A DNA stretch of 64,000 nt from Escherichia phage phiE142. The DNA is taken from the sequence record NC_055709.1; one strand, given 5' to 3'. Position 1 is the first letter of the stretch, and each line of letters opens with the position of its first letter. The notes below the pieces were generated by a model, which had not been told where the DNA came from, searched no databases, and was given only the letters and a program-made list of their open reading frames with translations. This document shows, in pieces, positions 4,777 through 59,125 of the stretch. Both the position numbers and the translations under genes were made by a program.

Positions 4777-5081
4777 TATAATGTTCTCTCAAATTTGTGG
4801 AAGCATTTACGGCATTTCAATTTCAAGTTATCAGTGGTCCAGTTAACCAGTTGGACTTGGATAGTTCCACATTCCGGACATGGATGTTTTGCTGCCGATT
4901 TGGCAGCATTTTCACGTCGTTCAACCATTTTCATGATTTCGTTCCATGCCGGAGGAACGAACTCTTCTTCATCGTGGATATTATCTCGCTGAACAAATTC
5001 AATCTTTGAACTATCATCAATAAACTTAACCAAGCTGTTATTAGTGCTCATATCAATATCCTCTAAAAGACGTAGGTTCAT
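4776..5081 (-). CDS. hypothetical zinc-ribbon protein (101 aa)
   Basis: C-terminal CPECG...CRKCFHKF four-Cys motif. Confidence 0.5.
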   Translation of the reverse strand: MNLRLLEDIDMSTNNSLVKFIDDSSKIEFVQRDNIHDEEEFVPPAWNEIMKMVERRENAAKSAAKHPCPECGTIQVQLVNWTTDNLKLKCRKCFHKFERTL

Positions 5082-6031
5082 TATAACACCTCAATGGCAT
5101 TTCGTAAACCATCCGCTTTCGCATTCAGAGCTTTTAACGATTTAGTTTGTTCTGCAATCTGGGCTTCGACTTCTTTCAGACGAGATTTGAGATATTCGCG
5201 TTCTTCTCTTAAGTTATCAACTTTTTCTGCTTTAGGTTCTTTAATAGGCTTAGGCTTATACTCGTTAGGGTTCTTCAACTTAATTTGAATGCGAGAACTG
5301 TATAACATTGAACCATTATCTTCGGTTTCATCATACATTTCTACCACGTCCATGATTCTTAACATCATGCGAAGTTTATAAGACAGCGAACGAATGGTTT
5401 TGTTGCGCTTATTAATTTCTTCGGCTTTCATAGTACCGAGATTACGTGAGTAATAATAAGGAACCTGGATATCAATTGATAACGACGCGGTGCCATTACC
5501 GGTTGGTTTGAATACTGCAGTAACCCAATCTTTAACATGAACTTTATTTGTACGATCATCACCGCCTGTGAATAATTTACGTGAATGTTTAAAAAGCATA
5601 TTCACTTGGTTATTGAATTCACAAGCAAATTTATCAGCAAATTTAGTTTCAGGAATGGTAGATAACCAATCAGCCAAATGAGTCTTTTTAACATCATTAA
5701 CAATAGTGAATTCAACCAAATCTGTTTTAGATGTCACAGATTTAATAAAGCTCGGTTTCATAAAGTTTTTAATGTTATCGCGAGCTACAGTAGAAGATAA
5801 TAAACGAGAACGTTTAAACCATTGAAGCAGCGTCCCTAATGAATGAGAATACGCATTTTGAGTATCTTTACAGATATGATTTTCTTGGCCTGTGTATGTA
5901 CCAAAATCGCGAAGAATACCACTTACTACATCTCGGTGTGGAACATCAAATCCTAGTGCGCCAACAGCGCGCTGGGCGTGAACGTTAGCGATAAGTCCTG
6001 CAAAGTAATCAATGTAATGTGAACGTGTCAT
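5081..6031 (-). CDS. hypothetical protein with C-terminal coiled coil (316 aa)
   Basis: long ORF; heptad-like C-terminal 50 aa; own early promoter upstream. Confidence 0.55.
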   Translation of the reverse strand: MTRSHYIDYFAGLIANVHAQRAVGALGFDVPHRDVVSGILRDFGTYTGQENHICKDTQNAYSHSLGTLLQWFKRSRLLSSTVARDNIKNFMKPSFIKSVTSKTDLVEFTIVNDVKKTHLADWLSTIPETKFADKFACEFNNQVNMLFKHSRKLFTGGDDRTNKVHVKDWVTAVFKPTGNGTASLSIDIQVPYYYSRNLGTMKAEEINKRNKTIRSLSYKLRMMLRIMDVVEMYDETEDNGSMLYSSRIQIKLKNPNEYKPKPIKEPKAEKVDNLREEREYLKSRLKEVEAQIAEQTKSLKALNAKADGLRNAIEVL

Positions 6032-9035: not shown

Positions 9036-10028
9036 TCATTTCAGTAAAGTAACTTCCGAGATTTCCTCCCAACCATCTTTATCGGTTGAAATAAAATCTG
9101 CTACATAAAGAGCCGTACGTAATGATACATTGCGAAGACGAGATACGTTAGCCTTCATCCAGGACAATGCTTTGTACGTTTCAGCATCAGTCAAGCCACG
9201 TTTCTGCATCATGTCAGTAGATAATATTACATCTTCAACTCGAACCATAATCTCTTCATTAGAGTGTACTCCAAGGTCGAGATACACTGAACGAGATACT
9301 AAAGCTTGAAGGTGCGGAGCAAGTTTCGAACCGCGTTCTAACTCTTTATCAATATCAACGTTTGTAATGAAAACGATAGTACCTTCAAACTCAAATTCTT
9401 TATCAATACCCTTATCATCAAGATAAGATGACGCAGTGCTCCAGCAAACTTTGCGTTTATCGCCAGTATCTAATGCGGCTTTAAGAAGGTTCAAGATGTC
9501 CATATCCGAGAATACGTCAACGTCGTCGATTAAGAGAACGCTGTCTGCATCACGGTTGAGCCAAAGTTGTTCGTAAAGGCCAATACCTGAGATTTTACCA
9601 TTAATGCTTTTGTATTTGATGAAACCATTATCATTAGCATTATTAAGCGCTTTATCCAGAGAATACGTCTTACCAATACCTGCTGCACCTGAAATAATGA
9701 GTGAACGAATTTTGCCATCGATAATGCCATTCGTCATCATGTTCATTACTTTAAAGCGTTTGTTGATACGAGTTTTCATATCTTCCGCGTTTTCAACAAC
9801 TGCAACTGGTGATGTCTCAACTCCTTCCATTACGATGTCTGATTTGAAGACCCATACTCCACGTTCAGAACCATCAATCATAACGAAAATTTTACCGTCA
9901 CCTAAGTGGGAACATTCAGGATTAAGCTTTGCCGGGAACCATGTCTTTGTGGCAACATAAGAACCAGAGATTTCGTTATTACGATAGATACCTTTTTTGA
10001 TTTGAACGTTGAACATTTTATTCTCCAA
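9036..10028 (-). CDS. P-loop NTPase (AAA-like ATPase), 330 aa
   Basis: Walker A GAAGIGKT and Walker B LLIDDVD. Confidence 0.6.
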   Translation of the reverse strand: MENKMFNVQIKKGIYRNNEISGSYVATKTWFPAKLNPECSHLGDGKIFVMIDGSERGVWVFKSDIVMEGVETSPVAVVENAEDMKTRINKRFKVMNMMTNGIIDGKIRSLIISGAAGIGKTYSLDKALNNANDNGFIKYKSINGKISGIGLYEQLWLNRDADSVLLIDDVDVFSDMDILNLLKAALDTGDKRKVCWSTASSYLDDKGIDKEFEFEGTIVFITNVDIDKELERGSKLAPHLQALVSRSVYLDLGVHSNEEIMVRVEDVILSTDMMQKRGLTDAETYKALSWMKANVSRLRNVSLRTALYVADFISTDKDGWEEISEVTLLK

Positions 10029-10086: not shown

Positions 10087-10305
10087 TTATTTGCGATGAG
10101 ATTTTTTGGTAAGAGGTTGAAAGAACACTGCTTTACCAGCAGGAGTCAAAGTGACTCGTAATGCATTACCGATTCCCAAGGATGCTTTAACCAGACCTTT
10201 AGATTTCAGTTCACCGAATGCTTGTCGTTGGTCTGCATCACGAGTGTTAACCATAAGTCCTTTATCACCAGCTTCACGAATCATTTCTAACATTTTGGTT
10301 TTCAT
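10087..10305 (-). CDS. hypothetical small protein (72 aa)
   Basis: ORF only. Confidence 0.4.
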   Translation of the reverse strand: MKTKMLEMIREAGDKGLMVNTRDADQRQAFGELKSKGLVKASLGIGNALRVTLTPAGKAVFFQPLTKKSHRK

Positions 10306-10392
10306 TTTGTTTTCTCCTCTTGTTTTGATAGGTCTATAATAACATATCCTAAAAGCATGTACACTACTTTTTAAAAATATTTTGACCCCCTA

Positions 10393-10410
10393 AAGGGCCC
10401 GAAGGCCCTT
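10393..10410 (-). terminator. GC-rich stem-loop downstream of 10412..11398
   Basis: aagggcc-cgaa-ggccctt hairpin; short U tract, so weak as an intrinsic terminator. Confidence 0.4.
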
Positions 10411-10411
10411 A

Positions 10412-11398
10412 TCATTTATAGTATGAATTGTGATTTTCTAAGTAGACTTGCTCAAGGAAGTCATCCCAGAAACTCATATCTACTTTTTGCTGCATACCGT
10501 TCTTAGCAGCTTGTTCTGCCGCATGTTCAACTTGGTCAACGATATCTTCTAAGAATTCTTGTACGGTTTTAAACGTATGTTTACCAAGCTTAACATCGAG
10601 AATAAATGGAGCATCCTGAAGCGGGTAAACCAGGTCGCCGGTTTTGTAAATTTCTAAGAGCTGAAGTCCACCACGGCACGCGTGACTCAATGCTTTCCAA
10701 TCAATACCTTCATTGGCTTCTGCCTTACGAGCACGTTCACCGTAGTTCTCTTCAAGTTTAACCAGGATGGCATTGAACTCTTTGTTAGTTAACGTATCTT
10801 GGAATTTACGGTCTAACAGACTATAGAATGTTTGCTTACCTGTTTTCTCGTTTTCAGTTTCAACCCATGAAGCAAATTCACTTACAGGCAGAACATTCTT
10901 CATATGTGATAAACGAATTACTGCACCATTATCAAAGTATTGTCCCCATTCATTAGAACGTTTAAGGGCTTGACGAAGAACAGCCAGTCGAGAACCCTTG
11001 ACGCCATATTTAGAAGCTTGCTTACGGACATACCCTAAATAAGATTTCATGTTAGTGGTATAGAAACGAGACCTGTTGTCTTGAATATACTTCCATACAT
11101 CAGGCAAATCAGATTTAACTACTAGACTTTGTGGAGTGTGAAGCATATCTAATGCGACGGTTTCACCGTCTGCAGCTAGTTTAAAGAAATATTTGAGACT
11201 ATACAACTCATGATCCACGTCGTCTTTTGTGTTCTTAGAAGCAGTGTTATTCGTGTTCTTGCTCATGTGTTCTTTAACGTTACCGGTCAAGATATCACGA
11301 GCATGAGGGACATAAATTTCTTTAAAATCGACGTCAGATTCAGGAGTAGACGTTCCATAAAGGTGGCTACCAAAGTAAGCCTTAACAATCGTTTTCAT
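10412..11398 (-). CDS. Pol-beta superfamily nucleotidyltransferase-fold protein (328 aa)
   Basis: N-terminal FGSHLYGTSTPESDVDF fits the GS-x(9-13)-D-x-D NTase signature; candidate third acidic residue in ALDMLH. Confidence 0.55.
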   Translation of the reverse strand: MKTIVKAYFGSHLYGTSTPESDVDFKEIYVPHARDILTGNVKEHMSKNTNNTASKNTKDDVDHELYSLKYFFKLAADGETVALDMLHTPQSLVVKSDLPDVWKYIQDNRSRFYTTNMKSYLGYVRKQASKYGVKGSRLAVLRQALKRSNEWGQYFDNGAVIRLSHMKNVLPVSEFASWVETENEKTGKQTFYSLLDRKFQDTLTNKEFNAILVKLEENYGERARKAEANEGIDWKALSHACRGGLQLLEIYKTGDLVYPLQDAPFILDVKLGKHTFKTVQEFLEDIVDQVEHAAEQAAKNGMQQKVDMSFWDDFLEQVYLENHNSYYK

Positions 11399-11871
11399 TA
11401 TTTAGCCTTATATTCAAGAGTAGGACAGACTTTTTCTTTACGAGCTTTAAGGTATTCACCTATTAATGATTTCTTACGTTCAATAGGCTCAAGTCCATTT
11501 TTAATTCGTTCTTGGTTTTGTGCAATGAGCTCAACTTCTTTATAATACTTCCGCTCTCTGTATAAGTCGATTAGCCACGGTATGCCTAATACTAAAACTA
11601 TAGAAATACCAACACATAATGCAATGAATAAAACACCTACACCAATTGAGGCCGGAACCAATGTCCATAAACTACTAAAGACAAAGAATTTAGTTAAAAT
11701 TTCCTGGCCAATGATTGTGACTGCTGCTAAAATCGCAAATCCAATAATTGAAGCAGCCAATACCGGGATTAACGTTTTCCAAAAATAAGCACACAACGTT
11801 TTCGGACGATTCCATGTACTATTGAACGCGGCATAAATTTTAAAGTGCCAAGAGTTTTCATTGATAATCAT
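11398..11871 (-). CDS. hypothetical integral membrane protein (157 aa)
   Basis: three predicted TM helices, basic C-terminal tail. Confidence 0.5.
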   Translation of the reverse strand: MIINENSWHFKIYAAFNSTWNRPKTLCAYFWKTLIPVLAASIIGFAILAAVTIIGQEILTKFFVFSSLWTLVPASIGVGVLFIALCVGISIVLVLGIPWLIDLYRERKYYKEVELIAQNQERIKNGLEPIERKKSLIGEYLKARKEKVCPTLEYKAK

Positions 11872-12423: not shown

Positions 12424-12756
12424 TTAAAGTTTCAACAAAATTCACCAAATCATTCTGACGAGCATCAACTTGTTTTTCATAAAAGTCTCCATAGTCATTT
12501 ACTGCATGATAAGCTACATCATTTAAATCTGAATCAGCTTCACGTAAGTCATGGATAAGGTCCATCAATTTATTAGCTTGTTCGCGTGTCATTTTACCAT
12601 ACTCGCTTCAATAAGATTCACTATGCCGTTTACCATGTTATAAGTAAACATCGGATAATTGTATTGTACTACAACATAAGCGATAAGCAAAAGTTTCATT
12701 TTGTTCTCCGTTCGTTTTGGTAGGACTACTATAACATAATCCTACCAAGATGTAAA

Positions 12757-29802: not shown

Positions 29803-29853
29803 AAGCCTTGCGGCAGCCTTGTCGGGGTTCCACCTGCTAAGGCAAGTGTTTGT

Positions 29854-29944
29854 ACGAAACGCCGGGATTCGAACCCGGTTATTAAGCAGTTGACGCTACT
29901 CAATATTTTTAAAGGCCATATCTCGACCATATCCGAACGTTCCG
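29854..29944 (-). tRNA. tRNA-like element (about 91 nt, anticodon not resolved)
   Basis: canonical T-arm CCGGGTTCGAATCCCGG and 7-bp acceptor pairing CGGAACG/CGTTTCG; no encoded CCA; remaining arms do not fold cleanly by eye. Confidence 0.4.
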
Positions 29945-30114
29945 TCAAAAACGCTACTCGGCTTACGGCAAAGATATTTCCTCGAATCGATAATTCTGTG
30001 CGCCGTTTCTGCTGTGATGTAAGGGGATATTAACGAATCATAAAGATTTATTAAGACCAGTCCTTACTCAGGGAACATCAGTCCGACGACTTGCCGGTAG
30101 CGACCCGGCTTCTC

Positions 30115-39183: not shown

Positions 39184-39477
39184 ATGTCTGGATTAAGTTA
39201 CGACCAGTGCGTTACAACAGGTCATGAAGCATGGCCTCCTACAGTAATTAATGCTTCTCAATCTAAAGTATTCACCGGCGGTATTCCTGTTCTTGTAGCA
39301 GGAGACCAAATAACACCTCATACAGAAATTAAAAAACCGTACGAGACTCATGGCGGTGTTACTGAACCTCGTACATCTAAAGTATATGTCACCGGTAAAA
39401 AGGCCGTTCAAATGGCTGACCCAATTTCATGCGGGGACACTGTTTCTCAGGCCTCGTCAAAAGTCTTTATAAAATAG
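39184..39477 (+). CDS. 5.4: PAAR-repeat spike tip protein gp5.4
   Basis: 97 aa from MSGLSYDQ; PAAR-like spike-tip assignment by size and position. Confidence 0.7.
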
Positions 39478-39485
39478 GAATTAAA

Positions 39486-41456
39486 ATGGCAAACACTCCT
39501 GTAAATTATCAGTTAGTCAGAACGGCGAATGCTATTCCCGAAATTTTTATCGGGGGCACATTTGCCGAAATTAAAACAAATATAATCGAATGGCTCAATG
39601 GACAGAACGAATTTCTTGATTATGATTTTGAAGGTTCACGTTTAAACGTATTGTGTGACCTTTTAGCATATAATACTCTTTATATCCAACAGTTCAGTAA
39701 TAGTGCAGTGTATGAAAGCTTTATGCGTACTGCTAACTTGCGCAGTTCCGTTGTACAAGCGGCTCAGGATAATGGATATCTGCCTGCATCTAAATCAGCA
39801 GCACAAACAGAAATTATGCTCACATGTACGGATGCATTAAATAGAAACTATATCACTATTCCGCGTGGTACTCGTTTCCTGGCGTATGCTAAAGGTACTT
39901 CTGTAAATCCATATAACTTTGTTTCCACCGAAGACGTCATTGTAGTTAAAGACAAAAATAATCAATATTTCCCACGTCTTAGGTTAGCTCAGGGACGTAT
40001 TGTTCGTACTGAATTAACATTTGATAAATTAAAACCTATCATTATTCGTGATAAGAACATTGACCGTAATTTGGTTAAATTGTATGTTGACGGAGCAGAA
40101 TGGATTAACTGGACTCGCAAATCGATGGTTCATGCTGGTTCTACTTCAACCATTTATTATATGCGAGAAACTGTTGACGGGAACACTGAATTTTATTTTG
40201 GTGAAGGTGAAATCTCTATTAACACGTCAGAAGGTGCTTTAACATCTAACTACATTGGCGGCCTTAAACCTGTCCAGGGTTCTAAAATCGTAATTGAATA
40301 TATTTCTACTAATGGTGCTGAAGCAAATGGTGCAGTAGGATTCTCTTATGCTGATACATTAGCTAATATCACAGTTATTGGAATTAATGAAAACCCAAGT
40401 AATAACCCTGACTTCGTTGGTGCTGATGGCGGTGGCGACCCTGAAGATATTGAACGTATCCGTGAATTAGGTACAATTAAACGCGAAACTCAACAACGAT
40501 GTGTGACTGCGACCGATTACGACACATTCGTCTCTGAACGATTTGGTTCTATTATTCAAGCGGTTCAGACATTTACGGATTCATCTAAGCCTGGGTACGC
40601 ATTTATTGCTGCTAAACCTAAGTCTGGGCTATATTTGACTTCCGTCCAACGAGACGATATTAAAAATTATCTTAATGAGTATAACTTAGGGACGATAACT
40701 CCTGTTGTTATTTCTCCTGATTATTTGTTTATTAAAATGAATATTCGCGTTACGTATGCATTGAACAAATTACAGGAATCTGAACAATGGTTAGAAGGCC
40801 AAATTATTAATAAAATCGACCGGTATTATATTGAAGACGTGGAAATTTTTAACTCGTCATTCGCAAAATCTAAAATGCTAACGTATGTAGATGACGCAGA
40901 TATTTCTATCATTGGTTCGTCTGCGACTATTCAAATGGTTCGCGAGGTACAGAACTTCTACAAAACACCTGAAACAGGTATTAAATACAATAACCAGATT
41001 AAAGATAGAACATTAGAATCTAACGTGTTTTCATTTGATAGTTTACGCGTTGACCCTGAAACGGAAGCTACTATTAAATACGACGTTCGCATTGTAGGTT
41101 CAGATAGAAATGACCGTGGCATTGGACAAGTTATTATTGGCCCGTTTGCAGATGGCGACGTTATAGAAAATGCTTATATTCAACCATATACTGGTGACGA
41201 TTTTAATAAACTTCATGTTACGGACGGAAGAAACAAATATTACTCTATAGGTGAAGTAAATTATCCGGCTGATTCAATTTATTGGAATATAGCTAAAATT
41301 GATTTAACTTCTGATAGGTTTGAAGTTCAAACTATTGAACTCTATTCAGACCCAGCTGATGATGTTATCTTTACTAAAGACGGGTCATTAATTGTATTTG
41401 AAAATGACTTACGTCCGCAATATTTAACCATAGATTTGGAGCCTATTTCACAATGA
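39486..41456 (+). CDS. 6: baseplate wedge subunit gp6
   Basis: MANTPVNYQLVRTANAIPEIF...; start at the Met matching the T4 N-terminus. Confidence 0.9.
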   Translation: MANTPVNYQLVRTANAIPEIFIGGTFAEIKTNIIEWLNGQNEFLDYDFEGSRLNVLCDLLAYNTLYIQQFSNSAVYESFMRTANLRSSVVQAAQDNGYLPASKSAAQTEIMLTCTDALNRNYITIPRGTRFLAYAKGTSVNPYNFVSTEDVIVVKDKNNQYFPRLRLAQGRIVRTELTFDKLKPIIIRDKNIDRNLVKLYVDGAEWINWTRKSMVHAGSTSTIYYMRETVDGNTEFYFGEGEISINTSEGALTSNYIGGLKPVQGSKIVIEYISTNGAEANGAVGFSYADTLANITVIGINENPSNNPDFVGADGGGDPEDIERIRELGTIKRETQQRCVTATDYDTFVSERFGSIIQAVQTFTDSSKPGYAFIAAKPKSGLYLTSVQRDDIKNYLNEYNLGTITPVVISPDYLFIKMNIRVTYALNKLQESEQWLEGQIINKIDRYYIEDVEIFNSSFAKSKMLTYVDDADISIIGSSATIQMVREVQNFYKTPETGIKYNNQIKDRTLESNVFSFDSLRVDPETEATIKYDVRIVGSDRNDRGIGQVIIGPFADGDVIENAYIQPYTGDDFNKLHVTDGRNKYYSIGEVNYPADSIYWNIAKIDLTSDRFEVQTIELYSDPADDVIFTKDGSLIVFENDLRPQYLTIDLEPISQ

Positions 41457-44400
41457 CAGTAAAAGCGCCAGCAGTCACGAGTCTCAGATTATCTAAATTG
41501 TCCGCAAACCAAGTTCAAATTCGCTGGGATGAGGTTGGCGCTAATTTCTACTATTTTGTGGAAATAGCTGAGACCAAAACAGCTAACGGGGAAGCAATTC
41601 CCCGTAATAGCTATAGATGGACTAATTTAGGATATACCGCTGATAACAATTTCTTTGAGTCTGGTTTAAATTCATTAACAACATATATGATGCGTGTGGC
41701 TACAGCAGCGGAGGGATTTGAGCAGTCTGATTGGAGATACACTGAAGAGTTTGAAACATTTGAAATAAACGCTTACACATTCCAACATATGATTGAAATG
41801 CAATTAGCTAACGAGTTTATTTCTGAAAAATTTACAAAAAATAATACAAACTACGTTGATTTTAATAATGACACGATCATGGCAGCACTGATGAGCGAGT
41901 CGTTCCAATTCAGTCCTGCATACACCGATGTGTCATCGATTAGAAATTTTATAATTGGTGAAAATCAGTATCATGAAATCCAGGGGCATATCCAGGATGT
42001 ATGTAAAGATATAAATCGAGTATATCTAATGGAATCTGAAGGAATTCTTTACCTTTTTGAAAGATTCCAACCTATTGTAAAAGTGTCTAATGATAAAGGC
42101 CAAACATGGAAAGCGGTTAAATTGCTTAATGACCGTGTAGGATATCCACTTTCACGAACCGTATATTACCAATCAGAATATACGACGTATTTGCTCGGCT
42201 ATGATAAGATTTTTTACGGGCGTAAATCATCCGATATTCGTTGGTCTGCTGATGATGTTCGTTTCAGTTCACAAGACGTAACATTTGCTAAAATCTGGGA
42301 TCAATTAAATTTAGGTTTTGATGTAGAGATTTTCGGTACATACGCGTCATTACCAGGAAACGTATCACGTATTGCAGAAGCTATTACTTGTAATGATGAC
42401 TATGTTTATATTGCGGCCAGAGATAAAGTTCGCTTCGTTAAAACCAGTAACGCTCCTATTGATTCAGATCCATTATCTCCGACCTATTCCGAACGGTTGT
42501 TTGAACCTGAGACGTTTACAATAACAGGCAACCCTAAAGCAGTTTGTTATAAAATGGATTCTGTTGGTGGAAGAATATTCGCTCTTATTATTGGTGAAGT
42601 TGAAAACGTTAATGACGACCCAAGAACAAAGCCTATTTTGGATTCCGTTGATAAAGGTGTATACGTTTTAGACCATGACGCTGGAACATTTAAAAGGATA
42701 TTTGGTAATACCGAAGAAGAACGCCGTCGTATAGAACCGGCTTTCACCAATATGTCTACTGATGGTGTTGAGCTTTATATCTCTTCTAGTAATTTTAAAT
42801 TTTTAGAATCTGATATTGTTGACGACCCAGAAACGCAATCTAAGTACGGACTTTTGGGAGCAGTTAAGTATGAATATCCTAGAGAATGGCTCGCAGATAA
42901 ACATTACCATATGATGATTTTCGCATCAAACGAAGAAAGTAATTGGGAAACTTTTTCACCAACTCCTATGCAGTATTATGCAGAACCTTTCTTTAGTTAT
43001 TCTAGAAAATCAGGCACACGTTCTTGGATTAATAACTCTGATAGAGCGGTAGTGATTTATTCTGATTTGCTTTACACAAAGGTAGTGGAAAGCTACCCTA
43101 GCACTTCACCTGATCGTAAAGTTCACGAATACTGGAATGACGGCGATTGTAAGATTGTTATGCCGAATATAGAATTCACTGGATTTAAAAAATACGCATC
43201 TGGTATGTTGTTTTATAAATCATCAGGTGAAATAATTTCATATTACGATTTTAGTTATCGTGTTAGAAATAACGTTTCTATAATTTGGAAGCCCACTAAC
43301 GTATTTTTGACCGCCTCATTACAAAACCAAGAAAAAGAAACTTCTTGGGTTCCTGTTGAAGAGACAGGTCTAGCTGACCCGGATTTACGCCCATTACTCA
43401 CTACAATGATGCCAGAGTCTTATCTGTTGGATAATACAAACTTTGAAGCATTTTGTGAAGCGTATATTCAATATCTTTCTGATGGATATGGGACTCATTA
43501 TAATAACTTATTGAATTTGATTAAAAATAAATACCCACGAGAAGAACACGCATGGGAATATCTTTGGTCTGAAATTTATAAACGGAACATTTATTTGAAT
43601 GCTGAGAAACGTGATTTAGTTTCTAGGTTCTTTGAGTCCAGAAGTTATGATTTTTATTCTACTAAAGGAACTGAAGCATCGTATAAGTTTTTGTTTAAAG
43701 TTCTTTATAACGAAGACGTTGAAGTAGAAATCGAGTCATCTGCTGGAACAGAGTATGATATCATAATTCAATCTGATTCTATAAGTGAAGATTTGGTTGG
43801 ACAAACTATATACACCGCTACAGGTAGATGTAATGTTACATATTTAGAAAGAAGCTATTCTAAAGGTAAATTACAATGGACTGTGACTATTCATAACCTT
43901 TTAGGTAGGCTTTTAGTCGGTCAAGAAGTAAAAGCCGAAAGACTAGCAGATTTTGAAGGTGAAATAGTTCGCGGTATTAAAGGTAAAGAACTTGCCCAAA
44001 ACACTATCGATTATTTTAATCGTGGTAGAGCTTATTACGTCATGAAAATAAAGTCAAATCTTCCATCCTCTCGTTGGAAATCTGACGTACTACGTTTTGT
44101 ACATCCGGTAGGATTTGGATTTATTGCAATAACCTTATTAACAATGTTTATTAATACAGGATTAACGCTTAAACATGTTGAAACTATTATTAATAAATAT
44201 AAAAATTATAAGTGGGATTCCGGACTGCCTACGGAATATGCAGACCGCGTCGCTCGTTTAGACCCTCAAGGTAATGTAGAATTCAATCCTGTTACAGGTG
44301 AAGTAATTTATGATGCTGGTCCTTATGCCGGTATCGAATACCCTTTACCTGCAAATTATAATGAAGAAAATGATAACTCTATTTTCCAAGGACAATTACC

Positions 44401-44551
44401 GTCCGAACGACGCAAGCCGATGAGCCCATTATTTGATGCATCAGGTACAACGTTCTCTAGATTTAGAGAGCTTGTTAATGAAAGATTGTTAGATAACGTG
44501 GGAAATCCTAGAGACCCGATTAATCCACCACAGGTTAAATTAGATGAATGA
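41453..44551 (+). CDS. 7: baseplate wedge initiator gp7
   Basis: 1032 aa, same length as T4 gp7; overlapping start/stop with gene 6. Confidence 0.9.
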   Translation: MTVKAPAVTSLRLSKLSANQVQIRWDEVGANFYYFVEIAETKTANGEAIPRNSYRWTNLGYTADNNFFESGLNSLTTYMMRVATAAEGFEQSDWRYTEEFETFEINAYTFQHMIEMQLANEFISEKFTKNNTNYVDFNNDTIMAALMSESFQFSPAYTDVSSIRNFIIGENQYHEIQGHIQDVCKDINRVYLMESEGILYLFERFQPIVKVSNDKGQTWKAVKLLNDRVGYPLSRTVYYQSEYTTYLLGYDKIFYGRKSSDIRWSADDVRFSSQDVTFAKIWDQLNLGFDVEIFGTYASLPGNVSRIAEAITCNDDYVYIAARDKVRFVKTSNAPIDSDPLSPTYSERLFEPETFTITGNPKAVCYKMDSVGGRIFALIIGEVENVNDDPRTKPILDSVDKGVYVLDHDAGTFKRIFGNTEEERRRIEPAFTNMSTDGVELYISSSNFKFLESDIVDDPETQSKYGLLGAVKYEYPREWLADKHYHMMIFASNEESNWETFSPTPMQYYAEPFFSYSRKSGTRSWINNSDRAVVIYSDLLYTKVVESYPSTSPDRKVHEYWNDGDCKIVMPNIEFTGFKKYASGMLFYKSSGEIISYYDFSYRVRNNVSIIWKPTNVFLTASLQNQEKETSWVPVEETGLADPDLRPLLTTMMPESYLLDNTNFEAFCEAYIQYLSDGYGTHYNNLLNLIKNKYPREEHAWEYLWSEIYKRNIYLNAEKRDLVSRFFESRSYDFYSTKGTEASYKFLFKVLYNEDVEVEIESSAGTEYDIIIQSDSISEDLVGQTIYTATGRCNVTYLERSYSKGKLQWTVTIHNLLGRLLVGQEVKAERLADFEGEIVRGIKGKELAQNTIDYFNRGRAYYVMKIKSNLPSSRWKSDVLRFVHPVGFGFIAITLLTMFINTGLTLKHVETIINKYKNYKWDSGLPTEYADRVARLDPQGNVEFNPVTGEVIYDAGPYAGIEYPLPANYNEENDNSIFQGQLPSERRKPMSPLFDASGTTFSRFRELVNERLLDNVGNPRDPINPPQVKLDE

Positions 44552-45548
44552 TTCAAGTGTTGTCTATCGTGCGATAGTTACTTCAAAATTTAGAACTGAA
44601 AAAATGTTGAATTTCTACAATTCAATAGGTGATGGTGATAATAAAAACACCATCTTTATAACGTTTGGTCGGTCTGAACCATGGGCTGCTAATGAAAATG
44701 AGGTGGGCTTCGCCCCACCGTATCCAACAGACTCGGTTTTAGGTGTAACAGATATGTGGACTAACATGATGGGTTTAGTTAAAGTTATCCCATCTATGTT
44801 AGACTCTGTTATTCCTAGACGTGACTGGGGAGATATTCGTTATCCGGACCCTTATACATTCAAAATAAATGATATAGTCGTATGTAATACAGCCCCATAT
44901 AATGCCACTGAAGTCGGAGCTGGATGGTTAGTATACCGTTGCGTAGATGTTCCTGATGTTGGGATGTGTTCTATTGAGTCTCTCGACAACAAAGAAGAAT
45001 GTCTTAAATTAGGCGGTAAATGGACTCCATCTGTTAGGTCTTTAACCCCTCCTGAAGGCCGTGGAGACGCTGAAGGGATTATCGAAGTTGGTGATGGATA
45101 TATATGGGAGTATCTTTATGAGATTCCACCCGATGTGTCTATAAACCGATGTACTAATGAATATATAGTCGTTCCATGGCCGGAAGAAGTTAAAGAAGAC
45201 CCTGCTCGTTGGGGATATGAAAACAATCTAACCTGGCAACAAGATGATTTTGGCCTTGTGTATAGAGTTAAAGCAAACATAATTCGTTTTAAAGCCTATT
45301 TAGACTCAGTTTATTTCCCTAATGCAGCACTGCCTGGTAATAAAGGATTTAGACAAATTTCTATTATCACAAACCCGTTGGAAGCTAAACTCCGTCCTAA
45401 TGACCCTAATATAAAAGCTGAAAAGGATTATTATGACCCCAGAGATTTACAGCGTCATTCCGGTGAAATGATTTATATGGAAAACCGTCCACCTATTATT
45501 ATGGCAATGGACCAAACCGAAGAGATCAATATTTTGTTTATGTTCTAA
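44544..45548 (+). CDS. 8: baseplate wedge subunit gp8
   Basis: 334 aa as in T4. Confidence 0.9.
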   Translation: MNDSSVVYRAIVTSKFRTEKMLNFYNSIGDGDNKNTIFITFGRSEPWAANENEVGFAPPYPTDSVLGVTDMWTNMMGLVKVIPSMLDSVIPRRDWGDIRYPDPYTFKINDIVVCNTAPYNATEVGAGWLVYRCVDVPDVGMCSIESLDNKEECLKLGGKWTPSVRSLTPPEGRGDAEGIIEVGDGYIWEYLYEIPPDVSINRCTNEYIVVPWPEEVKEDPARWGYENNLTWQQDDFGLVYRVKANIIRFKAYLDSVYFPNAALPGNKGFRQISIITNPLEAKLRPNDPNIKAEKDYYDPRDLQRHSGEMIYMENRPPIIMAMDQTEEINILFMF

Positions 45549-45552
45549 TTTA

Positions 45553-45573
45553 GGGAGACTTCGGTCTCCCTTT
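45553..45573 (+). terminator. stem-loop after gene 8
   Basis: gggagac-ttcg-gtctccc followed by TTT. Confidence 0.45.
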
Positions 45574-45577
45574 CGTG

Positions 45578-45585
45578 TATAAATA
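45578..45585 (+). promoter_or_regulatory. late promoter TATAAATA for gene 9
   Basis: 26 nt upstream of the gene 9 ATG. Confidence 0.55.
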
Positions 45586-45610
45586 GTATAAACTATTAAG
45601 GATTAGCCAC

Positions 45611-46474
45611 ATGTATATTCAAACTCCAAAACAATTGATTGACGTTGGCGAAATTGGTACCGCTTCTACAGGCGATATCCTTTTTGACGGCGGTGTTAAA
45701 ATAAACAATGATATAAATGCTATTTACAATGCGTTTGGCGACCAACGAAAAATGGCAACTGCTAATGGGACAGGACCAAATGGACAAATAATCCATGCTA
45801 CTGGATACTACCAAAAAGGAGGTCCTACTGATTATTTCACCCCTGTTCCAGTAGGAAGTAGACACGACATAGATGCTTCTACTGGTGGTGTTATTGTTAC
45901 TGTTGCTAGAGGTGAACTCGGTGATTCCGTGGAATTTATAAATTCAAACGGGTCAATTTCGGTAAACAACCCATTAAGTATCCAAGCATTAGATTCTATT
46001 AAAGGTGTTGCAGGTAATTTAGTTATAACTACACCTTATACTAAAGTTACTCTTCGTTGTATTTCTTCTGGTACAGGCGGTTCAATATGGGATTATTCTA
46101 CAGAAAGTATGTTTAGTCATACCGAAATTCCTGTAGACGGGACATGGAATATTATTTCAGACTATATCAATATTCCTCTATTTTATAAAACTGAATATAA
46201 TGCTGCTAAACTTTTGGTTACATGCCAATCTGCCAACGGCAGAAAAATTAAATCATGCGAAATAAATATTCTAATAGATACAATTAATTCAAGAGTTATT
46301 TCAACCGAATACGCAGTGATGCGCATTGGTAATGATAACGAAGAAGATGAAATTGCGAATATTAGTTTTTCGATAATTAACAATTTTGCCACTATGACAG
46401 TTTCTTCACATATAAATGGTCTTCGAGTGGCAGCTAAAGTTATTTCAACTCAGAAAATTAGGGTCGCTCAATAA
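45611..46474 (+). CDS. 9: baseplate wedge / long tail-fibre socket gp9
   Basis: 287 aa in conserved position. Confidence 0.85.
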   Translation: MYIQTPKQLIDVGEIGTASTGDILFDGGVKINNDINAIYNAFGDQRKMATANGTGPNGQIIHATGYYQKGGPTDYFTPVPVGSRHDIDASTGGVIVTVARGELGDSVEFINSNGSISVNNPLSIQALDSIKGVAGNLVITTPYTKVTLRCISSGTGGSIWDYSTESMFSHTEIPVDGTWNIISDYINIPLFYKTEYNAAKLLVTCQSANGRKIKSCEINILIDTINSRVISTEYAVMRIGNDNEEDEIANISFSIINNFATMTVSSHINGLRVAAKVISTQKIRVAQ

Positions 46475-48288
46475 TGAAACAAAATATTAAAATTGGGAAC
46501 GTCGTTGATGACGGACAAGGCGATTACCTTCGTCGTGGTGGTGCAAAAATTAATGAAAACTTTGATGAGTTGTATTATGAATTAGGCGATGGCGAAGTTC
46601 CATATTCCGCTGGTGCCTGGAAAACATACCATTCTTCAGATGGACTTAATTTAGCTGCTGAATGGGGTAAATCATACGCAATTGATACTTCAACAGGGCG
46701 TGTTTCTATAAATTTACCTAAAGGAACAGTGGAAGATTATAATAAAGTAATTAGAGCCCGTGATGTATTCGCCACGTGGAATATTAACCCTGTAACATTA
46801 ATTGCTGCCAGCGGTGATACTATTAAAGGTTCTTCCAGCCCAGTAGAAATCAATGTGCAGTTTTCAGACTTAGAATTAGTTTACTGTTCTCCTGGGCGCT
46901 GGGAATACGTTAAAAATAAACAAATAGACAAAATTACTAGTTCTGATATTAGTAGTGTAGCTCGTAAAGAATTTTTAGTCGAAGTTCAAGGTCAAACTGA
47001 TTTTCTTGATGTATTTGGGCCTGTTTCTTATAATGTGAATAATATCCGTGTAAAACATCGTGGTAACGAATTATACTACGGTGATGCGTTCAGTGACAAT
47101 AGTGACTTTGGTTCACCAGGAGCTAATCCTGGTGAAATCGTTGCATTAGATGGTAAAAACATCCGTCTAAGACAACCGTGTAATATCGGCGACACCGTAC
47201 AAATTGAAACCTTTTTGGATGGGATTACACAATTACGCAGTTCTTATTCTCGCCGCCAAATACGTATTTTAGATTCGAAATTAACAACCCGTCCTTCCTT
47301 AGAAGGAAGTGTATATGTCGCTGATTTGTCAACTTTGAAATCTATTCCTTTTTCCGCATTTGGAGTTAATCCTTCAGAACCGGTCAATACCAATTCTTTA
47401 GAAGTTCGTTTTAACGGTATTCTTCAAGAATTAGCTGGTACTGTTGGTTTACCTATGTTCAGATGTGAAGGAGCTGACGCAGAAACTTCTACTGAGTGTT
47501 CAGCTTTAGGTGGGACTTGGGTTACATCTAACACAGATTATTCTATTGAATATGATGATAACGATGCAACTATCGCACGTGCTTTAGTCTTTGACCGTAA
47601 GTTTGAAGACCAAGACATTATTGATATTACATGGTTTAATAACGATTTAGGCACTTTATTAAGTATCGATGACATTTTAGATACAACTGATGAAAGGTAT
47701 GTCGCACAAGGTGCAACCGTAAATGTGACAGGCGATGTGGCTTTGACCGATTTCAATAATATCGGATGGCCTAATGTAGAATCTGTTCCTGCATATAGCA
47801 GGGAATTCTCGTCTATTGCAAATATTTTTAACACCATTTACCCTGTCGGTACTATTTACGAAAATGCAGTGAACCCTAATAACCCAGCCACGTATTTAGG
47901 ATTTGGCTCTTGGAAATTATGGGGGCAAGGAAAAGTATTAGTTGGATGGAACGACGATATTAGCGATCCTAATTTTGCATTAAATAATAACGACCTTGAT
48001 TCTAGCGGGAATCCTACACATACCGCCGGTGGAACAGTCGGAACAACGTCTAACACACTAACTAATTCTGATTTACCTCCTACTCAAACTGACGAGAAAG
48101 TTCTTATTTCCGATGAGAACGGTACAATTATTATTGGTGGTTGTCAATACGACCCTGATGCAGAAGGTCCTATATACACCAAATACCGTGAAGGCCACGC
48201 CACAACGAATAGTACACACATACCGCCTCAAGCCGTAAATAATATTCAACCGTCAGTTACCGTATACCGTTGGGTAAGGATTGCATAA
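46474..48288 (+). CDS. 10: baseplate wedge subunit gp10
   Basis: 604 aa (T4 about 602). Confidence 0.9.
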
Positions 48289-48947
48289 TGACCATACTTA
48301 ATACTAAAGCGGGAGTAATATCCCGCGAAGCAGATTTTTTAGGATTTAGAAAAAATCCTACTCAAATTGATATTTTAAACAACCAAGGCGTAGGTTCTGT
48401 AACTATTTCTCAATTGGCAAAAGGATTCTACGACGATAACGTAGAATCTGCAATAAACGATGTTCATAATATTGCTAGAGCAGATGTAGGAACAGTTACA
48501 ATTAACACCTCAGGTGTATCTCCTGAAGGAACTTCACAGGTAGATTATTGGTCCTTTAGTGGAAGTGTAACTGACCCTAGTTTGCCCGATGGAAGCCCTG
48601 TTATTGTAAAAGTTTACGGGCTTCCTGTTAATGCTACTGTAGGTATGACAGCCGACGAATTTGTTGTACAATTACGTACTACTCTCCGGAATGCGATTTC
48701 CGACCAAATGGCTATTGCAGAGTATAAAGATGACCCTACTGTTGGGACTAAATTACAAATAACATATTTAGATAACCAAAGACACGTACTCCCAACGTAT
48801 TCCTCTTATGGTATCACGGTTTCTCAAGAAATAGTGTCTCAGGCTAAGTCCGGGTACGGCACTTGGAATTTACTAGGTGCGCAAACCATTACTCTTGACA
48901 ACCATATTTCACCTACAACCTTTTATTATTTTGTGAGAACCGCATGA
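48288..48947 (+). CDS. 11: baseplate wedge subunit gp11
   Basis: 219 aa from the TAATG overlap start; [11 protein letters not shown]...[12 protein letters not shown] matches T4 gp11. Confidence 0.9.
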
Positions 48948-50494
48948 GTAACAATACATATCAACACGTTTCGAATGAATCGGTATATGTTGAATTTGAC
49001 CCGGTAGGGTCAAATTTTGATAGTTCAATAACCAATGTCCAGGCAGCCTTAGCCTCAATTAGCGCATATGGTGTTAAAGGTGTTCCGGACGCAAGCGAAG
49101 CAGAAAAAGGTGTAATTCAATTAGCGACAGAACAAGAAGTTCTTGATGGATTTAATAGTACTAAAGCCGTTACACCAGCCACATTAAATGCAAGACTTCA
49201 GTATCCGAACGCGTCAGAAACACAATACGGTGTAACTAAATATGCAACACAAGAGGAAGCCATTGCCGGCACTTTAGACACTGTTTCTATTACTCCACTT
49301 AAATTAAACCAAACTATTGATAACACGTTCTCTACTCGTTATTCCACCGAAACAACTAACGGTGTTATTAAAATTGCAACTCAAACCGCTGCACTTGCCG
49401 GGTCTGATGATACCACGGCAATGACACCGCTTAAAACTCAGCAATTAGCAATAAAATTAATTTCTCAAATAGCTCCTAATAACGACCCGGCTTCAGAATC
49501 TATTACTGGTGTTGTGCGTTTAGCTACGGTGGCTCAAACACGTCAAGGAACTCTTCGCGAAGGATATGCAATTTCCCCATATACCTTTATGAATTCTGTT
49601 GCAACACAAGAATATAAAGGTGTTATACGTCTAGGAACACAAACGGAAATTAATAGTAATTTAGGAGATGTTGCTGTAACAGGTGAAACGCTAAATGGTA
49701 GAGGAGCTACCGGTTCTATGCGTGGAGTCGTAAAATTAACGACGCAGGCCGGTGTTGCACCCGAAGGCGATAGTTCTGGAGCATTAGCATGGAACGCAGA
49801 TGTAATTAATACACGCGGTGGGCAAACTATTAATGGTTCTTTAAATTTAGACCATCTCACGGCAAATGGAATTTGGTCACGTGGTGGAATGTGGAAAAAC
49901 GGTGACCAGCCGGTTGCAACAGAGCGATATGCATCTGAACGTGTTCCTGTTGGAACAATTCAAATGTTCGCAGGTGATAGCGCTCCTCCAGGTTGGGTTT
50001 TATGTCATGGCGGGACCGTTTCTGGGAACCAATTTCCAGACTATCGAAATGTGGTTGGAACGAGATTTGGCGGTGATTGGAATAATCCTGGAATTCCAGA
50101 CATGCGCGGTCTTTTTGTTAGAGGAGCTGGTACAGGCAGCCATATTTTAAATAATCGCGGTCAAGATGGCTATGGAAAGGATAGATTAGGTGTAGGATGT
50201 GACGGTATGCATGTTGGTGGTGTCCAAGCACAGCAAATGTCATATCATAAACACGCTGGTGGATGGGGCGAATATCAACGTCATGAGGCACCATTCGGAG
50301 CATCCGTATATCAAGGTTATTTGGGTACTAGAAAATACGCTGATTGGGATAACGCATCATATTTCACAAATGACGGCTTCGAATTAGGTGGTCACCGCGA
50401 CGCAACAGGCACTCTTAACCGTGAAGGACTTATCGGATATGAGACTCGTCCATGGAATATATCTTTAAATTATATTATTAAAGTCCATTACTAA
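48944..50494 (+). CDS. 12: short tail fibre gp12
   Basis: 516 aa; repetitive central region and receptor-binding C-terminus; 21 nt longer than copy 2. Confidence 0.9.
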
Positions 50495-52876: not shown

Positions 52877-52924
52877 NNNNNNNNNNNNNNNNTNNNGTAN
52901 NTNNNNNNGGNNANNNNNNNNNNN
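52877..52924. other. N-masked junction
   Basis: 48 positions, mostly N; the 8 called bases all match gp5.4 sequence at 39378-39398 under the +13515 offset. Confidence 0.9.
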
Positions 52925-52992
52925 AAATGGCTGACCCAATTTCATGCGGGGACACTGTTTCTCAGGCCTCGTCAAAAGTCTTTATAAAATAG
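52925..52992 (+). other. 3' fragment of a second gp5.4 copy
   Basis: identical to 39410-39477; no start codon of its own. Confidence 0.6.
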
Positions 52993-53000
52993 GAATTAAA

Positions 53001-59063: not shown

Positions 59064-59125
59064 TTTAGGGAGACTTCGGTCTCCCTTTCGTGTATAAATA
59101 GTATAAACTATTAAGGATTAGCCAC

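Follow-up and report, generated by a model that had tools for sequence, protein, structure and literature searches.

The 328-residue open reading frame (ORF) at positions 10412-11398 of the window, the 64,000-nucleotide stretch of Escherichia phage phiE142 DNA analyzed here (NC_055709.1), is the RB69-type orthologue of phage T4 nrdC.11. Its product is a nucleotidyltransferase (NTase) of the Pol-beta superfamily and the RlaP family (PF10127), predicted from its motifs to be catalytically intact, and the gene is an ordinary member of this recently characterized, already known family. The NrdC.11-type proteins are a distinct clade, which has the NTase core and first helices in common with the characterized RlaPs and a C-terminal module of its own. 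In bacteria, this clade has an RNA-repair operon context. We lean toward a role for NrdC.11 as an RNA 3'-end "refill" enzyme that works after the phage polynucleotide kinase-phosphatase (Pnkp) and before RNA ligase to counter anticodon nucleases that excise nucleotides.

Identification of the nrdC.11 orthologue

The ORF list of the window gives a reading frame from ATG to stop on the minus strand, with the N-terminal sequence MKTIVKAYFGSHLYGTSTPESDVDF:

10412..11398, minus strand: nrdC.11 orthologue, RlaP-family (PF10127) Pol-beta nucleotidyltransferase of the NrdC.11-type clade (ORF, Pfam, PHROG, RB69 synteny, AF2 model)

The first-pass annotation had reported this ORF with the strand left out; the ORF is real, and its placement in the nrdC-to-rI block agrees with the RB69 annotation of the syntenic region. 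The window belongs to an RB69-like T4-type phage, and the 100%-identical phiE142 protein in GenBank is named "nucleotidyltransferase". T4 NrdC.11 (NP_049709, gene T4p095), which RefSeq also annotates as a nucleotidyltransferase, is 77% identical over the full length and has the same catalytic and C-terminal motifs. Its gene maps identically, flanked by nrdC.10 on one side and the mobD.1/rI/tk genes on the other. Relative to T4 NrdC.11, the window protein lacks 8 residues, a difference that falls in the variable region 148-165. The ORF is under purifying selection, with 24 synonymous and 4 amino-acid-changing codon differences compared to RB69, and 102 synonymous and 67 amino-acid-changing differences compared to T4. 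The T4 orthologue has been detected as RNA and protein and classed as early RNA and middle protein (supplement of PMC9697503), which fits the early timing proposed previously. T4 is viable despite a deletion from nrdC.11 through mobD.3 (PMC9825161).

The Pfam RlaP profile (PF10127) matched residues 6-138 of the ORF at profile positions 23-146 of 249, with an E value of 1.1e-12 and 48.6 bits (gathering threshold 23). The protein also matched phrog_388, "nucleotidyltransferase", at E 1.4e-125. Homologues were found in 1566 phage records and 3267 protein clusters. The direct homologue search returned near-identical proteins only, and a diverse set was obtained from a search of representatives; conservation was scored in 113 of these diverse homologues (34-52% identity), 112 of which match PF10127. 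Alignment with canonical RlaP by hhalign covered residues 5-169 (probability 94.5%, E 8e-8). No PDB relative was found by sequence, either with the single protein as query or with the 113-sequence profile, and the NTase and three of its neighbours matched nothing in NCBIfam or PADLOC. The earlier view that the sequence does not allow the substrate to be deduced was too pessimistic and is now outdated, since the sequence falls in Pfam RlaP.

Catalytic motifs, fold, and C-terminal module

The N-terminal part of the protein carries the GS-x(9-13)-D-x-D signature that had been noticed previously. Ten residues separate G10-S11 from D22-V-D24, in agreement with hG[GS] and [DE]-h-[DE] at a spacing of 9-13. 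A third carboxylate, D62, is aligned to an Asp that is invariant in canonical RlaP; T4 has N in place of the adjacent D60. Among the 113 homologues, G10 and S11 never vary, and D22, D24, and D62 are 97-99% conserved. The corresponding features are:

11063..11398, minus strand: N-terminal NTase core, about residues 1-112, with strands 2-9, 23-30, 44-48, and 61-67 and helices between them (DSSP of model)
11366..11371, minus strand: G10-S11 codons (hG[GS] motif), invariant in the diverse homologues
11327..11335, minus strand: D22-V-D24 codons, predicted first two metal-binding carboxylates, 99% conserved
11213..11215, minus strand: D62 codon, putative third catalytic carboxylate, in strand 61-67, 97% conserved

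The AF2 model of the ORF has a pLDDT of 94.2, and every meaningful structural match of this model is an NTase. The Pol-beta NTase fold assigned at first pass is thereby borne out, and the Foldseek run on a structure model, which had been suggested as a check, returned NTases.

Residues following the core differ from those of known family members:

10412..10888, minus strand: clade-specific C-terminal module, about residues 171-328 (model, hhalign)
10673..10708, minus strand: codons of residues 231-242, G-I-D-W-K-A-L-S-H-A-C-R, the most conserved block of the protein

By DSSP of the model, this module consists of a small beta subdomain (residues 176-200) followed by five helices. Its last 129 residues (200-328) are not significantly similar to canonical RlaP (E 0.34). 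The sole local alignment of the C-terminal half to canonical RlaP pairs R242 with a conserved Arg of a canonical helix, a hint only that the C-terminal parts may be related. K235 and R242 are invariant in the 113 homologues, and D233 and H239 are conserved in at least 97%. Residues 231-242 are a candidate RNA- or NTP-phosphate-binding helix.

The window protein has the Pfam family and the GS/DxD/D set in common with the Pseudomonas enzymes PfRlaP and PaRlaP, and in both, a helical C-terminal part with a long final helix comes after the N-terminal NTase. In contrast, the window protein has about 330 residues, compared to a length of about 250-280 in the canonical RlaPs of the alignment; it contains the extra beta subdomain, and its C-terminal half does not align. 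In the sequence similarity network (SSN), its type falls in cluster 5, whereas the Pseudomonas RlaPs fall in cluster 1a.

Neighbouring genes and transcript signals

Upstream of nrdC.11, the window contains a membrane ORF in the position that the homing endonuclease gene mobD occupies in T4, which has no membrane ORF there:

11398..11871, minus strand: 157-residue membrane ORF, about 3 transmembrane (TM) segments, immediately upstream of nrdC.11
9036-10028: nrdC.10, P-loop protein with Walker A GAAGIGKT
10384-10410 or, more narrowly, 10393-10410, minus strand: GC-rich UUCG-loop hairpin, beginning 2 nt past the nrdC.11 stop codon
10363-10336: promoter-like site between nrdC.11 and nrdC.10
12728..12756, minus strand: sigma-70-like promoter match, TTTACA-17-TATAGT with TG

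The hydrophobic stretches of the membrane ORF (residues 29-60 and 62-105) fit about three TM segments. Its stop codon overlaps the ATG of nrdC.11 (TAATG), and the two genes are therefore probably co-transcribed and translationally coupled. The site at 12728..12756 is the best sigma-70-like match upstream of the co-oriented gene run from 12592 to 10412 and is a candidate early promoter (a consensus match only). The UUCG hairpin is a probable transcript 3' end or stabilizer, and it does not stand out against shuffled sequences (z -1.3).

The first-pass annotation had placed the gene next to a 3-TM membrane protein and a P-loop ATPase. The membrane ORF is indeed directly upstream, but nrdC.10 is not directly adjacent, as a 72-residue ORF, the hairpin, and the promoter-like site intervene; T4 lacks this 72-residue ORF. 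The functional link implied by that description does not hold. Of 38 divergent phage loci, only 5-6 retain these neighbours, and no bacterial locus does; a link of NrdC.11 to nrdC.10 or the membrane ORF was rejected, as they co-occur in close relatives only. The P-loop ATPase and membrane neighbours are local synteny only.

RNA-repair context in bacteria, archaea, and phages

At least 175 species of bacteria and archaea have a full-length NrdC.11-type homologue. RNA-repair genes or canonical RlaP lie within 8 kb in 36 of 80 bacterial and archaeal loci (canonical RlaP in 25, RtcB in 11, Pnkp in 9, Hen1 in 8, and Ro60-vWA in 6), and representatives of these neighbours were confirmed by Pfam. Once generic ABC ATPases and phage-like helicases are set aside, repair genes are the top recurrent neighbours in bacteria, in operons such as Hen1-Pnkp-NTase-RlaP and Ro60-RtcB-NTase-RlaP-Hen1. 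Pseudomonas RlaP is also associated with RNA-repair operons, an association that the window protein has through its bacterial homologues. As these are of exactly the same subtype, their context also speaks against the "unknown specificity" of the first-pass annotation. Canonical RlaP is the immediate downstream gene of the NrdC.11-type gene in 23 loci, so that the bacterial NrdC.11-type occurs alongside canonical RlaP and not as its replacement. This usual adjacency suggests that the two enzymes are non-redundant, and NrdC.11-type enzymes may therefore do something different from PfRlaP.

Among phages, the NrdC.11-type dominates T4-like viruses (the 1566 records above), whereas canonical RlaP was found in 86 phages, mostly jumbo phages and none of them an Escherichia phage. 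RNA-repair genes were found within 8 kb in 0 of 80 phage loci and nowhere in the 64-kb window. The nearest relative, phiC120, has an NrdC.11 identical to the window protein, and its genome encodes polynucleotide kinase, RNA ligase 1 (RnlA), and a second RNA ligase, all about 85-115 kb from nrdC.11. Proximity to tRNA genes was rejected as a general clue, with tRNA genes within 3 kb in 2 of 80 phage and 3 of 80 bacterial loci. A "polynucleotide kinase" annotated beside the homologue of phage ESCO10 looks like a shifted or mistaken label of the small membrane ORF and was not used.

Biochemistry of characterized RlaPs

PfRlaP and PaRlaP add one or two NMPs to the 3'-OH of RNA, do not use DNA or protein as substrates, and prefer Mn2+ and a broken-tRNA mimic (PMC12776372). 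In the case of PfRlaP, the end of the 5' half was preferred over the acceptor end (PMC12776372). Nucleotide addition before ligation restored the aminoacylation of a tRNA missing one nucleotide (PMC12776372). In total E. coli RNA, RlaP labelled rRNA-sized, full-length tRNA-sized, and other RNAs with little NTP specificity, while E. coli proteins remained unlabelled by the characterized enzymes (PMC12776372). All of this biochemistry comes from cluster-1a Pseudomonas enzymes and from a 2025 preprint that is not peer reviewed (PMC12776372). The same source places T4 NrdC.11 in the RlaP family; with two RlaPs adding NMP to RNA 3'-OH and T4 NrdC.11 a named family member, "unknown specificity" is outdated (PMC12776372). 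The same repair role has been predicted for phage RlaPs (PMC7824862).

Proposed mechanism and alternatives

We infer for NrdC.11 an RNA substrate, a number of added nucleotides, and a counter-defence role in the phage as follows. NrdC.11 is an accessory protein made ahead of phage DNA replication. With D22, D24, and D62 binding two divalent metals, it would move one or two untemplated NMPs from NTP to the 3'-OH of broken RNA. It would act chiefly on tRNA 5' halves short of anticodon-loop nucleotides, which would have been lost to host nucleases that cut and trim, such as RloC. This step would come after Pnkp, which leaves a 3'-OH and a 5'-phosphate, and precede resealing of the tRNA by RNA ligase 1 or 2, and part of the repaired tRNA would regain the correct length and sequence. 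A more specific version, possible but doubtful, is that two enzymes form a nucleotide-restoration module with the NrdC.11-type as its second, functionally distinct half, the only half that T4-like phages retain, and that the C-terminal module gives this half its own preference for a substrate or nucleotide. In that case, the C-terminal module might recognize, for example, a trimmed anticodon loop.

NrdC.11 might instead repair or tail the 3'-terminal (CCA) ends of tRNAs, of the phage or the host, after damage from host exonucleases or toxins that attack the acceptor end, with no refilling of the anticodon loop. The chemistry would be that of RlaP, which also labelled full-length tRNA-sized RNAs (PMC12776372), and the homologue in Phaeobacter phage MD18, a single anecdote that counts for the refill reading as well, sits in a cluster of 16 tRNA genes. 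Class I and II CCA-adding enzymes belong to the same superfamily and are functional analogues, as their template-independent addition to RNA 3'-OH restores tRNA function. However, they match the window protein in sequence and fold only in the superfamily core, differ in architecture, and make a defined product, CCA. The ORF has no Pfam match to CCA-adding or poly(A) polymerase families, no CCA-adding enzyme is among its listed structural matches, and neither a head-neck-body-tail architecture nor a match by the PolyA_pol or class I CCA profile criteria was found. Certain T4 tRNAs need the host cca enzyme, and the bacterial operons hold ligase and end-healing enzymes (RtcB, Pnkp/Hen1), which handle internal breaks. 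Together with the preference of PfRlaP for the 5'-half end, these findings make repair at the acceptor end unlikely. Short 3' tailing of host or phage mRNAs or decay fragments, altering RNA stability during host shut-off and unrelated to repair, would be consistent with early production of the protein and with the broad labelling of total RNA by RlaP. Yet the recurrent bacterial neighbours of the clade are repair enzymes and include no RNA-decay genes, and one or two nucleotides make a poor degradation tag; we consider such tailing highly improbable.

The substrate may also not be RNA: NrdC.11 could directly inactivate PrrC/RloC-like HEPN nucleases through AMPylation of a host protein, in the manner of MNT antitoxins acting on HEPN RNases, or it could modify a small molecule, as aminoglycoside NTases do. 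Foldseek matches do include kanamycin NTase, ANT(4'), LinB, AadA, and an MNT antitoxin, and the clade-specific C-terminal module could recognize another substrate. These matches are weak (E 5e-3 to 0.3, TM 0.2-0.4), with the MNT structure 7ae9_G at E 0.27 only. Kanamycin NTase/ANT(4') and the structural-genomics NTase 3c18 are 8-11% identical to the window protein at TM-scores of 0.25-0.40, and they differ from it in having small-molecule antibiotic substrates and no RNA-repair context. The ORF, with 328 residues, is much longer than MNT antitoxins (about 100-150), its neighbours gave no HEPN match, and PADLOC gave no match either. The absence of protein labelling by characterized RlaPs and the RNA end-healing and sealing enzymes next to the bacterial homologues also argue against this alternative, which is very unlikely. 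A cGAS/DncV-like CD-NTase (CBASS) had no match in PADLOC or Pfam and is absent from the listed structural matches.

HalB acts as a regulator in bacterial defence; it synthesizes tyrosine-primed oligo-dA and is paired with the HalA channel (PMC13434031). Similar template-independent oligonucleotide synthesis by NrdC.11 could provide a decoy or signal, for example one holding a Hailong-type DNA-gated channel closed, and the co-translated membrane ORF might participate. HalB (PDB 9dbh/9dbj) is only 16% identical to the window protein, and no Hailong-like partner or context was found for the ORF, with no PADLOC match and a membrane ORF that has no PDB sequence match and is not conserved with the NTase. 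This role is extremely improbable. Refilling of broken tRNA 3' ends by NrdC.11 remains our preferred explanation.

Significance

RNA repair was discovered in T4, where PrrC cleaves tRNA-Lys and the break is mended by Pnkp and Rnl1. By removing the wobble nucleotide, RloC-type nucleases are believed to beat this repair. The practical outcome of the present analysis is an improved annotation and a defined experiment, and no new kind of system; with partner enzymes, hosts, and genetics in place, the gene can readily serve as a test case. If the two-enzyme version is true, the T4 Pnkp/Rnl1 pathway would resist nucleotide-excising anticodon nucleases (RloC), adding a third layer to the PrrC-T4 arms race. 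If NrdC.11 refills the gap, it would be the missing phage answer to RloC-type nucleases, and this would explain why an apparently dispensable gene is retained in more than 1500 sequenced T4-like phages.

The nrdC.11 gene and its surroundings

The nrdC.11 gene and the genes around it are all encoded on the minus strand.

Features around nrdC.11
9036-10028, minus: nrdC.10, P-loop protein (Walker A GAAGIGKT, DD-type Walker B)
10087-10305, minus: 72-aa ORF (phrog_6001) between nrdC.10 and nrdC.11
10363-10336, minus: promoter-like TGTACA-16-TATTAT (consensus match only)
10393-10410, minus: GC-rich UUCG hairpin, 7 bp, two bases past the nrdC.11 stop
10412-11398, minus: nrdC.11 ORF, 328 aa, ATG to stop
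TAATG at 11398, minus: stop of the upstream membrane ORF (157 aa, ORF call), overlapping the nrdC.11 ATG
12756-12728, minus: best upstream promoter-like site of the nrdC.11 unit (consensus match only)

The surrounding DNA matches Escherichia phage phiC120 at 96.6% identity and RB69 at 93.7%; both phages belong to the genus Mosigvirus (Tevenvirinae). The syntenic gene in the RB69 record is nrdC.11, with the product "nucleotidyltransferase". The RB69 gene run nrdC ... nrdC.10 - ORF102c - nrdC.11 - membrane protein - mobD.1 ... rI - tk confirmed the nrdC-to-rI location assigned in the first-pass annotation. The query matches a phage phiE142 protein in GenBank at 100% identity and T4 NrdC.11 at 77% over the full length. 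nrdC.11 is a genuine gene under purifying selection; the codon differences from the window gene are 24 synonymous and 4 amino-acid-changing for RB69, and 102 synonymous and 67 amino-acid-changing for T4. Many GenBank/UniRef records of identical or near-identical proteins (e.g., phages AV109, mobillu, and ESh27) are labeled 'thioredoxin', a label whose spread probably began with the name of the gene, nrdC.11; others read nucleotidyltransferase or hypothetical protein. In the RB49-like phages JSE and AV108 (matches H69/H70), only 66% of the protein is covered by the nrdC.11 match, which is split in two. A truncation or an internal deletion, perhaps of the beta subdomain, may account for this.

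Two hydrophobic stretches of the 157-aa ORF (residues 29-60 and 62-105) are compatible with ~3 TM segments. The UUCG hairpin has a folding energy of -13.4 kcal/mol, with a z of only -1.3, and the promoter-like site at 10363-10336 is followed by the 72-aa ORF and then nrdC.10. Because of this hairpin and promoter-like site, nrdC.11 and nrdC.10 look like parts of separate transcription units, nrdC.11 being the final gene of one and nrdC.10 belonging to the next. The mechanically called nrdC.10 ORF begins at a TTG that precedes the RB69-annotated start; its product gave only sub-threshold Pfam AAA matches and no match in PDB, NCBIfam, or PADLOC. T4 lacks the 72-aa ORF. The T4 orthologue is expressed, since its RNA is assigned to the early class and its protein to the middle class (supplement of PMC9697503). 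A viable T4 deletion spans nrdC.11 to mobD.3 (PMC9825161).

Other features of the window

A stretch of 40 N's lies at 52877-52924, and a direct repeat of 11.07 kb then occupies 52915-63988. This is a copy of 39400-50473 (99.8% identical, offset 13,515 bp), in which a block of large plus-strand ORFs appears a second time, as far as the end of the window. phiC120, the matching record, is 186.6 kb long, compared with ~168 kb in its relatives. The repeat seems to have arisen in assembly or scaffolding and not by true duplication. One further RNA feature was called by ARAGORN:

29852-29945, minus: 'tRNA-Stop', 94 nt, anticodon UUA

The adjoining tRNA-Arg(UCU) and tRNA-Met(CAU) were both confirmed by the Rfam tRNA model, and the 94-nt feature had no Rfam tRNA match at E ≤0.01. 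It probably represents either a spurious call or a structured RNA other than a tRNA.

NrdC.11 has a nucleotidyltransferase fold

The N-terminus of the query protein is MKTIVKAYFGSHLYGTSTPESDVDF. The GS/DxD signature noted earlier was borne out by the ORF translation, with G10-S11, a 10-residue gap, and D22-V-D24. The sole Pfam match was RlaP (PF10127, "RNA repair pathway DNA polymerase beta family"; E 1.1e-12, 48.6 bits against a cut-off of 23), covering residues 6-138 and profile positions 23-146 of 249. The protein belongs to phrog_388, "nucleotidyltransferase" (E 1.4e-125). NCBIfam, PADLOC, and sequence searches of PDB (single protein or profile) gave no match. An exhaustive representative search returned 3267 homologue clusters at E ≤1e-3 and 752 at E ≤1e-30; the best 150 are mostly full length (~300-350 aa). 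When the query was aligned with 112 homologues (34-52% identity), G10, S11, Y131, K235, R242, and G272 were invariant, and D22, D24, D62, D84, Q127, R222, D233, and H239 were at least 96% conserved.

The AlphaFold2 model built from this alignment is confident (pLDDT 94.2, pTM 0.84). In it, an N-terminal alpha/beta core (strands 2-9, 23-30, 44-48, and 61-67) leads into two long helices (118-154) and a small beta subdomain (176-200); the rest of the chain, up to the C terminus, forms five more helices. Foldseek against PDB gave only weak matches (E ~5e-3), of which the better-scoring were nearly all NTases, among them 3c18, kanamycin NTase/ANT(4'), Hailong HalB, LinB, AadA, Tam41, and an MNT antitoxin. 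BFVD returned a long run of viral "nucleotidyltransferases", baculovirus HE65 among them. The Pol-beta fold proposed in the first-pass annotation therefore stands, as neither a non-NTase fold nor a characterised T4 match of a different fold emerged. The query protein is very probably an active Pol-beta NTase.

NrdC.11 represents a subfamily distinct from characterised RlaPs

The RlaPs of Pseudomonas fluorescens and P. aeruginosa were studied by Carruthers, Fatma and Huang (preprint, 30 Dec 2025, PMC12776372). Both add 1-2 NMPs (or dNMPs) to RNA 3'-OH ends, prefer Mn2+, and are inactive on DNA and protein. In a nicked tRNA mimic they favour the 5' half, and RlaP treatment before ligation partly restored aminoacylation of a tRNA lacking one anticodon-loop nucleotide. 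The authors proposed RlaP as an antidote to cut-then-trim nucleases such as RloC, a role predicted earlier for phage RlaPs by comparative genomics (PMC7824862). They count T4 NrdC.11 among the family, labelled "of unknown function", and assign it to the separate similarity cluster 5.

For comparison, 14 canonical RlaPs adjoining query homologues were aligned; their representative aligns with PF10127 over its whole length (E 5.9e-81). Profile-profile comparison with the NrdC.11 type gave 94.5% probability (E 8e-8), over query residues 5-169 only, and similarity of the C-terminal 129 residues was not significant (E 0.34). The NrdC.11 type therefore appears from these profiles to be a distinct subfamily, with a common core and a C-terminal module that is different or has diverged past recognition. 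In a single local C-terminal alignment, R242 lies opposite a conserved Arg of the canonical helix. D62 aligns with an invariant Asp of canonical RlaPs and is retained in T4, which has Asn at position 60; D22, D24, and D62 are thus taken as the putative catalytic triad.

Prokaryotic relatives are tied to RNA repair operons

A scan of one genome per species with the C-terminal motif found full-length relatives in 175 prokaryotic species (33-52% identity). Eighty loci were fetched, neighbour ORFs were clustered, and HMMs from recurrent clusters were searched within 8 kb of the NTase. Canonical RlaP was found in 25 of the 80 loci, RtcB in 11, Pnkp in 9, Hen1 in 8, and Ro60-like vWA in 6; at least one of them was present in 36 (raw counts, without formal background control). 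Pfam supported the neighbour representatives (RtcB 1e-68, Hen1_L 9e-114, PNKP_ligase 4e-163). Such RNA-repair genes are usually single-copy per genome. Because they are nevertheless the top recurrent neighbours, generic ABC ATPases and phage-like helicases apart, the NrdC.11-type clade itself, beyond PF10127 generally, is tied to RNA end-healing and sealing systems.

In 23 of the 80 loci, canonical RlaP lies directly downstream of the NrdC.11-type NTase on the same strand, and this tandem is a two-NTase module. Typical orders are Hen1-Pnkp-[NrdC.11-type]-RlaP, RtcB-[NrdC.11-type]-RlaP, and Ro60-RtcB-[NrdC.11-type]-RlaP-Hen1...Pnkp. The tandems often sit within Hen1-Pnkp or RtcB operons (bacterial loci L009-L082; e.g., L068 5307-9796 and L029 3525-16623).

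Phage loci

RNA-repair genes were found neither in the 64-kb window nor within 8 kb of the NTase in any of 80 viral loci. The phiC120 genome encodes polynucleotide kinase, RNA ligase 1, and a second RNA ligase, so that partner enzymes for a refill role are present in the same genome type. The NrdC.11 type occurs in 1566 phage records, mostly T4-like; canonical RlaP occurs in 86, mostly jumbo phages, with none in Escherichia phages. In phage ESCO10 (L002, OM386655; 3552-4004), product names seem shifted or wrong across a long stretch (e.g., 'polynucleotide kinase' on a 150-aa ORF, 'RNA ligase 1' on a 69-aa ORF) and could mislead context inference.

The adjacency to the P-loop ATPase and the membrane protein, remarked on in the first-pass annotation, did not hold up as a functional link. 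The membrane ORF (44/80) and nrdC.10 (36/80) accompany the NTase mainly in close relatives. They are retained in just 5-6 of the 38 viral loci whose NTase is <55% identical and beside it in no bacterial locus, and T4 has mobD in place of the membrane ORF; the link was therefore rejected. Adjacency to tRNA genes was likewise dismissed as a general feature (2/80 viral loci). One of these two loci is striking: Phaeobacter phage MD18 (L003, MT270409), which is unrelated to T4, carries a homologue of 28% identity at 4989-5978 within a cluster of 16 annotated tRNA genes. A Ruegeria phage has a similar homologue.

Proposed role in RNA repair

Host anticodon nucleases cut tRNA to leave 2',3'-cyclic phosphate and 5'-OH ends, RloC also removes the wobble nucleotide, and T4 heals the ends with Pnkp before sealing by Rnl1 (literature cited in PMC12776372). 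NrdC.11, using D22/D24/D62 and two metal ions, would extend the healed 3'-OH by 1-2 untemplated nucleotides. Sealing by the ligase would then give a loop of the right length, and some of the products would be functional. NTP or RNA phosphates may be bound by the conserved basic helix 231-242 (K235, R242) and by the helix that carries Q127, K130, and Y131. The predicted product, a 3'-OH end, would directly suit phage 5'-phosphate ligases, which fits the frequent Pnkp/Hen1 association of the clade. A role of some kind at RNA 3' ends is likely, and nucleotide refill of broken tRNA between Pnkp and ligase is somewhat favoured as the specific one. The most serious caveat for refill is the tandem with canonical RlaP, the only type assayed; this pairing points to separate tasks for the two enzymes.

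Repair of CCA ends, also a 3'-end reaction, is rather unlikely, given that the protein lacks similarity to CCA enzymes and that its relatives occur with ligase and healing operons. The weak fold matches and the absence of a HEPN partner make nucleotidylation of proteins or small molecules very unlikely, and mRNA tailing, for which an RNA-decay context is absent, is highly improbable.

The nrdC.11 gene, its fold prediction, family name, and proposed role are already on record, and the 2025 preprint (PMC12776372) mentions the T4 orthologue by name. The present analysis adds confirmation by a high-confidence model, the delimitation of a distinct subfamily, and evidence from operons that is specific to the clade and includes the NTase tandem. 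A known kind of protein was correctly recognised in nrdC.11; the practical value lies in a well-defined experiment that can be carried out in a classic system.
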